Shown here piece after piece: positions 36,429 to 41,413 of a DNA stretch of 42,454 nucleotides. The position numbers and the translations under genes were made by a program. A model generated the notes under the pieces. It ran no database searches and was not told the DNA's origin. It was given only the letters and a program-made list of their open reading frames with translations. Origin of the DNA: Patescibacteria group bacterium (lineage in GTDB: Bacteria > Patescibacteriota > Minisyncoccia > Phycocordibacterales > SIBU01); assembly GCA_038063715.1 (NCBI GenBank), contig JBBTUO010000025.1, forward strand, positions 1 through 42,454. The letters run 5' to 3'. Within the stretch, counting starts at the first letter, position 1. Each line of letters starts with the position of its first letter.

Positions 36429-37634
36429 ATGAAAAAAACCAAGAAGAAGGCCCCTAAATCCAAGAAGAAGAAAATAGCTAAAAAGCCCGTAAAGGCTAAG
36501 AAAGTTAAGGCTGTCAAAAAGCTAGCGAAGGTGAAAGCTGTTGTGTCCAAGAAAGATAAGGACATGAATGCCCGCGCACAGAGACTTTTTCTGAAAGGTA
36601 AAGAGCGCGGTTTCGTGACTCATGACGAAATACTTAAAGAATTTCCACACATCGAGGACGATATTCTTTTTCTTGATCAGCTCTACGCAAAACTTCACGA
36701 AGGCAGTATAGATATTTTGGAAAGCGGAGGAATGCTCGATCTCGGAGAAGATGATCCTGTTGCTAAGAAAAATGTGTACTCCGGCCGAACCGCCGATTCT
36801 TCATACGATTCAATTCAAATGTATTTGAAAGAAATCGGTCAGTACCCGCTGATTCACGCTCAGGAAGAAAAAGATTTGGCAAAGAGAATTCAGGTCGGGG
36901 ACTTGGAAGCAAAAAATCTTTTAGCTCGAGCCAACCTCCGCCTCGTTGTTTCAATTGCCAAAAAATATGTCGGCCGTTCACCTGATCTGACTTTGCTCGA
37001 CTTGATTCAAGAGGGTAATCTCGGTCTTTTCAAGGCTGTAGATAAATTTGATTGGACTAAGGGCTACAAGTTTTCAACCTACGCTACCTGGTGGATTCGC
37101 CAGGCTATTACTCGCGCGCTAGCCGACCAGTCTCGTACTATTCGCGTGCCGGTGCACATGGTAGAAACGATTGCCAAGTACAAGCAGGTTGTACGACGTT
37201 TGTCGCAGGATCTCGGACGTGAGCCGTTGCCGGAAGAAATTGCCGTAGAAATGGGTCTTGATGTTGAGAAAGTTTATAATATTGAAAAAATTGATCAGGA
37301 TACCGTATCGCTCGAAAGCCCAGTTGGAGATGAGGGAGATGACGGTAAATCAACTCTCGGAGACTTTTTGCCCGATGATAAAATTTTGTCGCCAGATCAG
37401 GATGCTTCACGCAGAATATTGTCCGATCAAGTTAAAGAAATTTTGAATGATTTGTCTGAAAAAGAGAGACGCATTCTTGAAATGCGACATGGTTTAAATG
37501 ACGGTATCACTCACACGCTCGAAGAAGTAGGACAGAAATTTGGTGTGACTCGCGAGCGTATTCGGCAGATTGAAGCTAAGGCTCATGAGAAGATAAGACA
37601 GCACGATAAGTCCAAGAGATTAGAGAACTACTAA
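36429..37634 (+). CDS. rpoD: Primary sigma factor RpoD/SigA
   Basis: [46 protein letters not shown]; Lys-rich N-terminus; start moved to ATG 36429. Confidence 0.97.
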
Positions 37635-37639
37635 AAAGA

Positions 37640-37678
37640 AAAACAGCCCCGATTCGCAAAGCGAATCGGGGCTGTTTT
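37640..37678. terminator. Bidirectional terminator
   Basis: AAAACAGCCCCGATTCGC-AAA-GCGAATCGGGGCTGTTTT. Confidence 0.85.
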
Positions 37679-37720
37679 AAGCAAGAAAAAAGGCGCTTGT
37701 GGAGCGCCCTAGCGGAGAGA

Positions 37721-38023
37721 TTAAATTGGAATGATCAAGAAGTAATGTCGTTCCGGATCAAAGCCCGGCACGCGAGATCCTGCGAGAGTCAGTGCCTGAC
37801 GGAGTTCTCCGAGCGAGCGCCAGGTTTCTCCGGGTTCATGGATGACACTTGTCGCCAGCAGATCACGAATGTTTTTGATTCTGCGGCTACTGAGAAATTC
37901 CAACGTAAGAGCGTTGAGGGTAATCTCTGCTAAGACTTCTGCGAAGTCCTCGACCGGCATAACCAGGAGGTGTTCAGGTAGATGAGTAACTGGGTCAACC
38001 ACAAGAGGCTCGTTCATAAACAT
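37721..38023 (-). CDS. Small protein resembling a stand-alone RNA polymerase alpha C-terminal domain
   Basis: LLVMPVED...TLNAL...RRIKNIRDLL.TS....RSLGELRQAL..AG; own candidate promoter TTGCCA-N17-TATGCT near 38047-38075. Confidence 0.5.
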   Translation of the reverse strand: MFMNEPLVVDPVTHLPEHLLVMPVEDFAEVLAEITLNALTLEFLSSRRIKNIRDLLATSVIHEPGETWRSLGELRQALTLAGSRVPGFDPERHYFLIIPI

Positions 38024-38084
38024 TTTGGGTTCAAAGGACTGATATAAGCATATTCCACATATTTAATAATGGCAAATTTGGAAA

Positions 38085-38402
38085 AGTGTTGGGGCCACTT
38101 GCGACAAGCGCAAGCGGCCCCGTAGGGATATTAGATTCTTTTCTCTGTCTGGAAATGTGTCACCCTCCCTTGTTGTCTCCAACGTATCTAAGGGCCAGGG
38201 CAATTAAGTCCTCCTGGCGAAGCAACCCTGTGTGGGGTACAGTCGATATGTTGTAGCGCGGGTGTCCAGAAGCGCGACCTATCGTCCTTTCGGACTTAAG
38301 AGCTCCAACCAATATTTACAGCCATGGTTGTGGTCGCCTGAATGTGTCTTTTTAAGGCTTTTGTGCTTTCATCACCAGACCATCTCCTTTCTGGCTTTTG
38401 CC
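38085..38402 (-). ncRNA. Unassigned large structured RNA candidate
   Basis: No credible ORF; nested helices, two GNRA tetraloops on the minus strand, an 8-nt long-range complement, and a candidate promoter and terminator. Confidence 0.6.
38091..38121 (-). terminator. Terminator-like hairpin closing the candidate ncRNA
   Basis: Minus strand GGGGCCGCTTGCG-CTTGT-CGCAAGTGGCCCC, then AACACTTTT. Confidence 0.6.
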
Positions 38403-38485
38403 AAATGCAGTATATACATTTTTTTGATATCACGCCATGACGAACCTGTGCCAAAAGTCTATTATTTTTTGTTATACTAGTGGCT

Positions 38486-41413
38486 ATGAAATCGCAGAAA
38501 ATCCAAGTTTTTGATGAGTTGTACGCACGCTTAAATAAGCAACAAAAAAAAGCAGTGGACACTATTGATGGTCCAGTGATGGTGATTGCCGGCCCGGGAA
38601 CGGGAAAAACGACTATTTTGACGCTTCGTATTGCTAATATTTTGCGGAAAACCGATACACCTGCGTCGGGTATCTTAGCGATAACATTTACCGATGCGGG
38701 AGTGAAAGCGATGCGCATGAAGCTTCGAGCTGTTATTGGTAGCCGAGCCGACGAGGTCAAGCTCTACACATTCCACGGCTTTGCCGCGAGTATTATTGCA
38801 GAGTTTCCCGATCATTTTACGAGAATCTATCGCTCACAGCAGATGACCGAGATTGAGGCACAGGAATTAGTTCGTGGTATTTTGAAAGATAAAAAATATA
38901 AACAAATTCGTCCCCTCGGTGAGCCTGATTTTTATATTTCTGCGATTCTCAAAACAATTAGTGATGCAAAGCGTGACGCGCTTACTCCCGGGAAGGTGCG
39001 TGATTTTGCGCGTACTGAAGCGAAGCGTTTGGCCGATGATCCGGATTCTCTATCGACCCGCGGAGCGACTAAGGGTCAATTGAGAGCTGATATAAGGAAG
39101 CAGATTGAAAAACTTGAGAAAACCGTTTTGTTCGGAGACATCTATGAGACCTACGAGGAAGAGAAGCGGGCAGACAAAAAAATCGATTTTGATGATTTAA
39201 TTTTTGAACTGTTGCAGGCAATTCGTACCGATGAATTGCTGAAGTCGCTAATCCAGGAAAAATATCTGTACCTTTTGGTGGATGAACACCAAGACACCAA
39301 TGATTCACAAAACGCCATTATCCGCCTTATAGCCAGTTTTTTTGATGAGCCGAATCTCTTTGTGGTGGGTGATGAAAAGCAGGCGATTTACCGATTTCAG
39401 GGCGCTTCGGTTGAAAATTTTCTGCAATTTCAGAGTCTCTGGAAAAATATGCAAACGATTTCGCTTGAGGATAATTATCGTTCTCACCAGCACATTCTGG
39501 ATGCTGGTTTTTCGCTTATCCAGCACAATTATGCCGAGGGCGAACATGCCTCACTTCGGACCAAGCTTAAGGCAGTGGCTGATGAAAAACCTCGTCCAAT
39601 AGAGGTAATTTCAGCGGGCAGTACGGCATCGGCCGATAGGGCACTTGTAGATCGATTGAAAAATTTTGTTGAGCGATGTGAGAAAAATTCCGGCTCCACC
39701 GCAGCGGTTATTGTTCGTCGGAATCGAGATGTTGAGAAGATCGCAACACTTTGTGAAGCACACGGTATCTATGCCGCGTCTGAGCGAGGTATAAATATTT
39801 TCCTTCACCCTGTGGGTGCACTTTTTTTTGAACTACTTCAGTTTTTGCATAATCCGGCGCAGATAGAAAGTTTGGCGGTTACATTGGCCTCTGGTTTGTG
39901 GAATATTGAAATGGGCAAAGTGTCGGAACTTGTTCGTTTAATTAAAACTGGGAGGGAATCAGAGGTGATGAAGGCTATACCAGCTGTTAGCCAGATTCTT
40001 CGGGAAGTAAATCATAAAGGAGGGCTTTCATTTTTGGTGTATGTTGCCGAACAAAGTGGTTTTAAAAATGTGGTTATAAAAAGTCCAGCAAACGCAGAAG
40101 TGTGGCGAGGGATTATTGCGCTTGCATCTGAATTGGCTGGGCGCGACCGGTCTTACGCAGATGACCCACGCAAACTTATCGAAGCCTTGCTTGCATACAA
40201 AGCGACTGCGGAAAATCGGAGTGTGAAAGTGCTATCAGGAACACCCGATGCGCCGATTCGTATTATGACTGCACACGGATCCAAAGGACTTGAGTATGAT
40301 GAAGTGTTTTTACCATACGCGGTAAATGAATCGTGGCTTACTCGTCCGCACTCTGCATCTTTTGTGTTGCCCAACTGCGAGAAAGCAGAGGGAGATGAGC
40401 TAAAAGACGCACGGCGACTTTTTTATGTTGCGTTGACTCGTGCTCGAAAACACGTGACGATTTTGGTGCCACTTGAGGATGCTACAGGAAGGATGTTTAC
40501 CCCGCTTGGATTTGTTGATGAGTTGTCTCCTGCCGATATTGCCCGCAGTCAGGTTCCCGCCGAGGCTATCGATACCTTTGTGCTAGCTAAAACTCGGGGT
40601 GATGAAAAACGACGTGAGGAATTATCTTCGTATGCGAAAACTGTTTTAATTGAGAAGGGACTCTCCGTAACGGCGCTTAACCATTTTATAAAATGCCCGC
40701 AAGAATTTTTGTATAAGAGTATTTTGAAAGTTCCAGAACCGCCGTCGGCTAAATCCGAAGGTGGAAGCGCAATGCATTCGGCAATGGACCTAGTGTGGCG
40801 GACGGTGCGTAGCGATCAGGCTGTCTCTCACATCGATACTGAAATTAAAACCGCCGTCACGGAGTATCTAGCCAGCTCTCTGTTGCCCTCGTTTGAAAAG
40901 GAAGCCATTCGTGAGGAGCTACTCGAAATCGCACCAGTAGTGGCGAAAGCGTTGGGTTCTCATTTTGAGGAACAAGGCGAAGTTCGGACTGAATCGTGGT
41001 TTGAAACTGAGTTTGAGGGCATTCGACTTCACGGGAAGATGGATGCTGTACTTGTGAACGGCGACACAGTGAAGGTTTTTGATTATAAAACAAAACAGGC
41101 GATGTCCCCGGCTGCAATCAAGGGCGAAACGAAATCGAGTAACGGTGATTATTTCCGACAGTTAGTATTTTATTACATGTTGCTCGGTGCGCAGTCGGCG
41201 TATGCTGGCAAACAAATTATGCCGGCGCTTGTGTTCATCAAGCCTGATGATAAAGGGAGATGCCCCATTATTTCTTTGCCGATTACTCAAGCAGATGTTG
41301 TGAACCTGAAAAAAGAGGTTGCGATATTGGTTGAGGCAGTAAAGACAGGGAAATTGATTGATGGTCGTTGTGGCGAGGACGACTGTCAGTGGTGTGGAAT
41401 GTCGGAGTTGTAA
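38486..41413 (+). CDS. UvrD/PcrA-family helicase with a C-terminal PD-(D/E)XK nuclease (AddA/AdnB-like)
   Basis: AGPGTGKT, LVDEHQD, GDEKQAIYRFQGA, MTAHGSKGLEY, LFYVALTRA; nuclease CPQ..GKMD..DYKT..QLVFY..CX4CX2C. Confidence 0.92.
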   Translation: MKSQKIQVFDELYARLNKQQKKAVDTIDGPVMVIAGPGTGKTTILTLRIANILRKTDTPASGILAITFTDAGVKAMRMKLRAVIGSRADEVKLYTFHGFAASIIAEFPDHFTRIYRSQQMTEIEAQELVRGILKDKKYKQIRPLGEPDFYISAILKTISDAKRDALTPGKVRDFARTEAKRLADDPDSLSTRGATKGQLRADIRKQIEKLEKTVLFGDIYETYEEEKRADKKIDFDDLIFELLQAIRTDELLKSLIQEKYLYLLVDEHQDTNDSQNAIIRLIASFFDEPNLFVVGDEKQAIYRFQGASVENFLQFQSLWKNMQTISLEDNYRSHQHILDAGFSLIQHNYAEGEHASLRTKLKAVADEKPRPIEVISAGSTASADRALVDRLKNFVERCEKNSGSTAAVIVRRNRDVEKIATLCEAHGIYAASERGINIFLHPVGALFFELLQFLHNPAQIESLAVTLASGLWNIEMGKVSELVRLIKTGRESEVMKAIPAVSQILREVNHKGGLSFLVYVAEQSGFKNVVIKSPANAEVWRGIIALASELAGRDRSYADDPRKLIEALLAYKATAENRSVKVLSGTPDAPIRIMTAHGSKGLEYDEVFLPYAVNESWLTRPHSASFVLPNCEKAEGDELKDARRLFYVALTRARKHVTILVPLEDATGRMFTPLGFVDELSPADIARSQVPAEAIDTFVLAKTRGDEKRREELSSYAKTVLIEKGLSVTALNHFIKCPQEFLYKSILKVPEPPSAKSEGGSAMHSAMDLVWRTVRSDQAVSHIDTEIKTAVTEYLASSLLPSFEKEAIREELLEIAPVVAKALGSHFEEQGEVRTESWFETEFEGIRLHGKMDAVLVNGDTVKVFDYKTKQAMSPAAIKGETKSSNGDYFRQLVFYYMLLGAQSAYAGKQIMPALVFIKPDDKGRCPIISLPITQADVVNLKKEVAILVEAVKTGKLIDGRCGEDDCQWCGMSEL

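Follow-up and report, generated by a model that had tools for sequence, protein, structure and literature searches.

A species-restricted and probably transcribed non-coding gap near rpoD of a Patescibacteria group bacterium, with RNA helices as expected by chance

In the genome of a Patescibacteria group bacterium (assembly GCA_038063715.1), a gap of 456 nt separates an open reading frame (ORF) of 100 amino acids (aa) from the divergently transcribed gene of a UvrD-type helicase with a PD-(D/E)XK nuclease domain. The gap is part of contig JBBTUO010000025.1, positions 1 to 42,454, which we analysed at its full length (the window). An earlier inspection of the letters alone (the sequence-only reading) had proposed that the minus strand from 38402 to 38085 carries an independent multi-domain or ribozyme-like RNA gene. 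Neither the folding energy nor homologues nor expression signals support such a gene. We suggest instead that the gap is a species-restricted non-coding insert in a variable slot between the conserved divergent ORF and the helicase gene, either a spacer or an orphan transcript, and that it is probably transcribed; to this reading we assign a probability of about 0.5. The product would be an orphan RNA of approximately 250-320 nt, read from the minus strand toward the 13-bp hairpin at 38121-38091 or ending there, and it would be without function. It may be an orphan transcript of recent origin, or what is left of a small, decaying gene cassette formerly present in the slot, because the number and length of its helices and its folding energy match those of shuffled sequence.

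In agreement with the sequence-only reading the gap is non-coding: all six frames are broken by stops, including the three frames of the minus strand. It is present in a single copy, since neither blastn nor nhmmer detected a paralogue in the genome of 843,795 bases. Its GC content of 44.5% was considered as a mark of a structured RNA and dropped, since it is not an outlier when compared with the median of 41.5% in the 284 gaps of at least 150 nt in this genome.

The predicted fold is at the level of shuffled sequence

All helices, loops and repeats named in the sequence-only reading were retrieved on the minus strand (Table 1), including the two copies of GACACAUU. They are real complementarities, and their number and energy are those given by chance. 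The minimum free energy (MFE) of the 251-nt core (38390-38140) is -70.1 kcal/mol, compared to -64.5 +/- 4.4 kcal/mol in shuffled sequences (z -1.25), and 22 of 200 shuffles fold as well as the core or better. For the plus strand of the core, z was -0.94. For the full 318 nt the two strands differed, with z -3.60 (minus) and -1.58 (plus). The value of -3.60 is attributed to the 3’ hairpin, because z falls to -1.25 without this hairpin; a strongly negative z of a whole stretch can come from one terminal hairpin. As a background, 62 windows of 240 nt in the contig were folded, and their z values were mostly between about -2.9 and +2. Only five of them were at z -4.7 to -5.8, all overlapping intergenic gaps after genes, and one of the five overlaps the terminators called after rpoD.

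Counting of helices led to the same result. Six perfect stems of at least 6 bp were observed, while 300 dinucleotide shuffles contained 4.67 +/- 2.10, and 36% of the shuffles equalled the observed number. For perfect stems of at least 5 bp, the count was 16, compared to 19.8 in the shuffles. Thus, with fold energy and stem counts at the shuffle level, the proposed multi-domain structured RNA did not stand up to this comparison, and a selected multi-domain fold is unsupported.

The 13-nt loop of the GCCAGG/CCUGGC stem carries GGACUUAA, and its complementarity to UUAAGUCC, a part of which belongs to the GAAA hairpin, had been taken as the sign of a pseudoknot or a switch. This argument loses its weight, since a perfect complement of at least 8 nt is present in 18% of the 300 shuffles. 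A second, unrelated perfect 8-nt inverted repeat exists in the same 571 nt, and in the nested ensemble the pairing between GGACUUAA and UUAAGUCC has a probability of 0.02-0.03. The value of the present case is mostly negative: hand-read helices of 4-6 bp, GNRA loops and an 8-nt complement in a 250-nt gap are what chance gives.

Table 1. Features of the gap and of its surroundings. Positions refer to the window unless another contig is named; minus-strand elements are given 5’ to 3’ in their own direction where the higher position stands first.
Feature	Position	Strand	Remarks
Whole gap	38024..38479	-	456 nt, between 100-aa ORF and helicase gene (ORF map)
Proposed promoter TGGCGT-N17-TATACT	38437-38409	-	2/6 and 5/6 consensus positions
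Core enclosed by GUCUGG/CCAGAC	38147..38380	-	contains the other named helices; pair probabilities 0.25-0.97
Closing helix GUCUGG/CCAGAC	38380-38375 with 38152-38147	-	sequence check
GCGACC/GGUCGC	38337-38332 with 38279-38274	-	encloses CAACCA/UGGUUG and the GAAA hairpin
CAACCA/UGGUUG	38330-38325 with 38311-38306	-	sequence check
GUCC-GAAA-GGAC hairpin, GNRA cap	38295-38284	-	pair probability 0.94-0.95
ACCC/GGGU hairpin	38238-38235 with 38228-38225	-	sequence check
GCCAGG/CCUGGC, 13-nt loop	38218-38213 with 38199-38194	-	sequence check
GGACUUAA in the 13-nt loop	38211-38204	-	exact 8-nt complement of UUAAGUCC at 38299-38292
CCCUU/AAGGG	38194-38190 with 38171-38167	-	C38194 common to this helix and GCCAGG/CCUGGC
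GUUG-GAGA-CAAC hairpin, GNRA cap	38183-38172	-	stacked on CCUU/AAGG; pair probability 0.81
Metatranscriptome contig of run X10	38162..38388	not given	245 nt; 14 differences, ~94% identity; other study
13-bp GC-rich hairpin, then AACACUUUUCC	38121-38091	-	candidate 3’ end of transcript
Promoter-like TTGCCA-17-TATGCT	38075-38047	-	9/12 consensus positions, called by scan; between hairpin and 100-aa ORF
100-aa ORF	37721..38023	-	no Pfam family; conserved divergent partner of helicase gene
Copies of the small ORF	37721-38023; L037:4969-5235; L035:1146-1439	-; +; -	
UvrD-type helicase with PD-(D/E)XK nuclease domain	38480..41413	+	PF00580, 2.3e-60; PF12705, 3.5e-23

Homologues and the variable slot

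A BLAST search with the region against 60 relatives gave no match longer than 22 nt. We then used a covariance model of 251 positions and 44 pairs (R1), which was made from the window and an identical copy with the helices of the sequence-only reading. No real homologue was found with R1 in 149 relatives, in a search that rests on one sequence, was run with strict filters and could miss fast-evolving relatives. Matches at E values up to 1 were obtained in nine genomes, the best of them with 25.9 bits. In the alignments of the four best, 177-192 of the 251 positions are missing and the matching parts are A-rich flanks; the remaining five had lower scores. The phage and plasmid collections contained no match. 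When the GAAA hairpin together with the loop complement was used as a pattern, 0 loci were found in the genome_contigs collection and one locus in metagenome_contigs, which is identical over all 456 nt and has the same neighbours. A loosened pattern yielded nine viral loci, a number estimated to be the chance expectation, and none of them fits R1. Because only identical or near-identical copies were found and no diverged homologues, no covariation can be counted, and the suggestion of a ribozyme-like gene is left without homologues.

The slot was compared with that of other genomes of the genus (here G001, G003 and G004; the genome under study is G000). The helicase gene is present in all seven genomes of the genus, with 28-53% identity. 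Next to it, G001 and G003 have a homologue of the 100-aa ORF, with 38% identity in G001 and 29% in G003 (E 1e-9 on pairwise comparison). Only about 52 nt separate the two genes of G003, too little to accommodate the RNA. In G004 the helicase gene is located 177 nt after rpoD. In G001 the slot is filled by an intact ORF of 106 aa (L037:4559-4879, plus strand), which has the same orientation as the candidate and resembles ribosome modulation factor (RMF): it matches PF04957 with 26.6 bits, which is below the cut-off of 27.9. In the sequence, a GC hairpin with a U run lies downstream of it.

The RMF-like gene of G001 and our candidate are alike in position and orientation, and both span about 320-360 nt with a hairpin downstream. 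They differ in that the ORF is intact in G001, while the frames of the candidate are all broken and have no tblastn likeness to it. Accordingly, the possibility that the candidate is a pseudogene of the RMF-like gene was rejected. Judged from these arrangements, the candidate is limited to one species-level lineage and sits in a slot whose content varies. For the genus, such a variable slot between two conserved divergent genes is documented here.

A contig from a public DNA run (X3) belongs to another organism (17 differences in 86 nt) and joins window position 37606 to 38543, skipping 936 nt. It fits relatives such as G004, in which rpoD and the helicase gene are adjacent and both the small ORF and the gap are missing.

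Presence in an RNA library and expression signals

Parts of the candidate are contained in 11 public runs from five studies. Ten of these are DNA runs from groundwater or freshwater; the eleventh is a metatranscriptome of freshwater. Four of the 11 (X3, X7, X9 and X10) were compared with the candidate. X3 and X9 contain identical pieces, and X7 contains a contig over 38042-38335 with four changes. X10 is the metatranscriptome, and its contig (Table 1) covers most of the core. According to this contig, which gives no strand and could stem from carry-over of DNA, the stretch may be transcribed. The transcription proposed in the sequence-only reading is backed by an RNA-library contig on 38162-38388, which does not show the minus strand. 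That reading had also listed what would argue against a functional RNA: neither homologues nor covariation were found, and on the third point, a lack of minus-strand transcription, the contig is unstranded. X10 has no contig on 37623-38155 or 38402-38700, and these uncovered parts are no evidence on relative abundance. X10 and X11 share few sequence words with the stretch, and no habitat is concluded from them.

The sequences proposed as promoter and terminator of the candidate are present at both ends, but the signals are weak or non-canonical and neither was called. The promoter TGGCGT-N17-TATACT agrees with the consensus at 7 of 12 positions and was passed over by the consensus scan. The 13-bp hairpin lacks an adjacent U run and was not called by the terminator scan, which called two canonical terminators after the 100-aa ORF and rpoD. 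The hairpin has no second copy in the genome, and its membership in a repeat family was rejected. For comparison, we read by eye the flanks of two RNA genes of this genome. The RNase P RNA gene is preceded by TTGAAA and TATAAT hexamers, and it and the tmRNA (transfer-messenger RNA) gene end in GC hairpins directly followed by U runs. As far as such sequence features tell, the promoter and terminator of the candidate are weaker than those of the proven RNA genes of the genome. The signals typical for a stand-alone small RNA (sRNA) gene, namely a consensus-like sigma-70 promoter and a GC hairpin with a direct U run, were not found here. The promoter-like site TTGCCA-17-TATGCT suggests that the 100-aa ORF has its own promoter.

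Comparison with known RNA families

Rfam 15 gave 0 matches at gathering score in the whole window, in line with the unassigned status given to the candidate in the sequence-only reading. At E values up to 10, the only match within 38080-38410 was a snoRNA-like chance match of 13.4 bits. A T-box or riboswitch was rejected because of the missing Rfam match. As that reading had recognised no hallmarks of them, so the candidate is not RNase P RNA, tmRNA, signal recognition particle (SRP) RNA or 6S RNA: no model of these matched in the region, and ARAGORN found no tRNA or tmRNA in the window. The RNase P RNA of the genome is located at G000:C2:5389-5736 (119.9 bits; cut-off of RF00010, 100) and the tmRNA (RF00023) at C40:19405-19808 (99.8 bits). 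No match to SRP RNA (RF00169 and RF01854; small and large) was found anywhere in the genome. The same was true for 6S RNA (RF00013) at E values up to 10, in a search whose control responded in no more than 7 of the 14 known genomes. Elsewhere in the genome, a divergent 6S RNA may exist.

The proteins of the SRP pathway were also searched for. The genome contains no match to PF02978, PF00448 or TIGR00959, which would indicate Ffh or FtsY, and no DT[AS]GR motif within an open frame. SecY was found with 344.6 bits, and therefore the protein search works on this genome. Because Ffh and FtsY are missing, SRP RNA is not expected, and the candidate is not SRP RNA. Neither SRP RNA nor the Ffh M domain was found in 26 genomes of the order, and searches for a full SRP54-type GTPase were negative in sets of 41 (order) and 81 genomes (phylum); all these counts include G000. 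According to one paper, two SRP subunits are missing in many bacteria of the Candidate Phyla Radiation (CPR) (PMC8080830), so that the lack of the SRP pathway in CPR bacteria appears to be already known.

With RNAs of the 6S or Ms1 type, which bind RNA polymerase, the candidate has in common a similar size class and the proposed stand-alone gene. It is located about 400 nt from rpoD, and the rest of the genome gave no 6S RNA match. The candidate differs from 6S RNA in having no RF00013 match and in its predicted MFE and centroid folds, which are multi-branched and not a rod with a central bubble, and it was not found in relatives. Compared with orphan bacterial intergenic sRNAs, the candidate is similar in being a single-copy non-coding stretch between divergent genes in one species-level lineage, with a -10-like box upstream, a stable hairpin at the 3’ side and a contig in an RNA library. 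It differs from them in having no nameable target, partner protein or conserved seed, and in its weak -35 box and the hairpin without the U run seen in the genome’s own RNA genes. A length of about 250-320 nt is long for such sRNAs. A limited literature search turned up no paper on structured RNAs naming Patescibacteria.

Competing explanations

Could the candidate be a true structured sRNA of about 240-320 nt with a transcription of its own, existing in this species-level lineage only and acting in trans, in a protein-binding or regulatory manner, by a compact fold with GNRA loops and a loop-helix contact? We consider this unlikely, yet several observations speak in its favour and against a mere spacer. 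At least two 4-bp Watson-Crick hairpins with GNRA caps within 250 nt were found in only 26 of 13,382 strand-specific windows of the genome, and the RNase P RNA gene is among these 26. In the candidate the caps read correctly on the minus strand only. The X10 contig, with its match of about 94%, coincides closely with the section inside the closing helix, an extent that would fit a stable RNA. The stretch is non-coding, and z of the full 318 nt is lower on the minus strand than on the plus strand. Two sequence variants also point in this direction: C38192 to U, present in two variant contigs, changes C-G to U-G in the lower stem CCUU/AAGG and so keeps the pair as a wobble, and U38239 to G could add a G-U pair extending ACCC/GGGU. 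Furthermore, many true RNAs do not beat their shuffles, so that a real fold cannot be excluded by such tests, and fast-evolving RNAs can escape both BLAST and a covariance model derived from one sequence; members of the “same genus” in this case have helicases which are only 28-53% identical. These points have to be seen against a core fold and stem counts at chance level, the lack of a homologue in 149 relatives or any collection, the weak -35 box, the hairpin without U run and a slot which in relatives holds nothing or something else. Only the pair of GNRA hairpins rises above background, and it is no more than suggestive, because from the measured rate about 19 chance pairs are estimated per whole genome. 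As to the variants, four positions are visible, all in X7 and two of them shared with X10, for which the comparison covers only these positions. U38162 to C is unpaired in the model of the sequence-only reading, and C38157 to A breaks a pair of a GAUG/CAUU helix, which is present in the MFE fold and was not listed in that reading. Thus one variant keeps a pair, one may add a pair, one is unpaired and one breaks a pair of the MFE fold, and with n = 4 these are too few to judge. It is tempting to speculate further that the candidate represents an undescribed, species-restricted class of structured RNA of about 250 nt, which recently arose in the slot next to rpoD, uses the 8-bp loop-helix pairing against the GAAA hairpin as a switch beside its two GNRA hairpins, and reaches an abundance in situ that allowed its assembly from a freshwater metatranscriptome. 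We regard this as improbable. A real fold would make it one of the few examples in which a large structured RNA has recently emerged in an ultra-small CPR genome, with its pressure on every base.

The remaining explanations assign the sequence to a neighbouring gene, to a protein or to a housekeeping RNA. A long 5’ leader of the 100-aa ORF, which would start near 38402 and use the hairpin 38121-38091 as an attenuator, would be in line with the common strand and direction, with the location of the hairpin about 65 nt before the start codon, and with a mini-ORF (MKAQKP) after an AAAGGAG motif at the 5’ end. We nevertheless hold it for quite improbable: the promoter-like site with 9 of 12 positions is located between the hairpin and the ORF, the homologous ORF of G003 does without a leader, neither a riboswitch nor a T-box was matched, a U run is missing at the hairpin, and Shine-Dalgarno-like motifs are little informative in this genome. 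Very improbable is an mRNA for a small protein (the 46-aa ORF at 38203-38063) or a pseudogene (the frame of 70 codons from AUG 38372). The 46-aa ORF on the minus strand has AGGAGG located 6 nt before a UUG, and in G001 the slot is indeed filled by a protein gene in the same orientation, to which tblastn found no likeness. Two of three variants in this ORF, at 38192 and 38162, are third-position synonymous and the one at 38157 changes Thr to Lys, an outcome whose chance is estimated to be about 0.16; three variants are too few for a judgement. The ORF matches no Pfam family, and its only two matches among 1.84 billion representatives were both judged spurious: in P0005, a surface protein of 1319 aa with Ig-like repeats, the aligned match falls on a repeated 30-residue stretch, and P0006 (273 aa) also matched in three stretches. 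The other frame begins at AUG 38372 and runs to UGA 38160, interrupted by two in-frame UAA codons; when it was read through with X at these codons (P0002), it had no relative and no Pfam family. By exact look-up, none of four small ORFs is present in a collection of 15 billion proteins. The Shine-Dalgarno motifs were dropped as evidence for translation, since they are barely tied to gene starts in this genome: an ORF of at least 100 aa begins 4-10 nt after only 23 of 431 copies of AGGAGG and 9 of 165 copies of AAAGGAG. Finally, the chance that the candidate is a divergent copy of RNase P RNA, tmRNA, SRP RNA or 6S RNA is practically negligible. It was raised by apparent resemblances of UUAAGUCC/GGACUUAA to the long-range P4 helix of RNase P RNA and of GUCC-GAAA-GGAC to SRP helix 8, and by the lack of SRP RNA and 6S RNA matches in the rest of the genome. 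With RNase P RNA it would share a long-range 8-bp pairing with an AAGUCC-like strand and GNRA-capped helices. However, RNase P RNA and tmRNA are encoded on other contigs, RF00010 has no match here, the 8-bp pairing is within chance, Ffh and FtsY are missing in the genome, no Rfam match was obtained even at an E value of 10, and a housekeeping RNA would be present in the relatives, where it was not found.

Flanking genes

The 100-aa ORF, just past which rpoD is located, has only one other cluster, of 97% identity, among 5.8 billion proteins. A scan with a protein pattern of this ORF gave 328 pattern matches, of which 0 were confirmed. Within the genus, the small ORF (88-100 aa, no Pfam family) is the divergent neighbour of the helicase gene in three of seven genomes, and ...F/YxFL(I/V)xPI forms the end of every copy. 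On visual inspection, it may resemble a helix-hairpin-helix domain such as the C-terminal domain of the RNA polymerase alpha subunit. Neither the helicase gene nor the 100-aa ORF is preceded by a strong Shine-Dalgarno motif. After rpoD, a double hairpin consisting of two terminator-like stems is located at window positions 37640-37710, and a copy of its longer stem with 92.7% identity exists at G000:C29:4636-4676.

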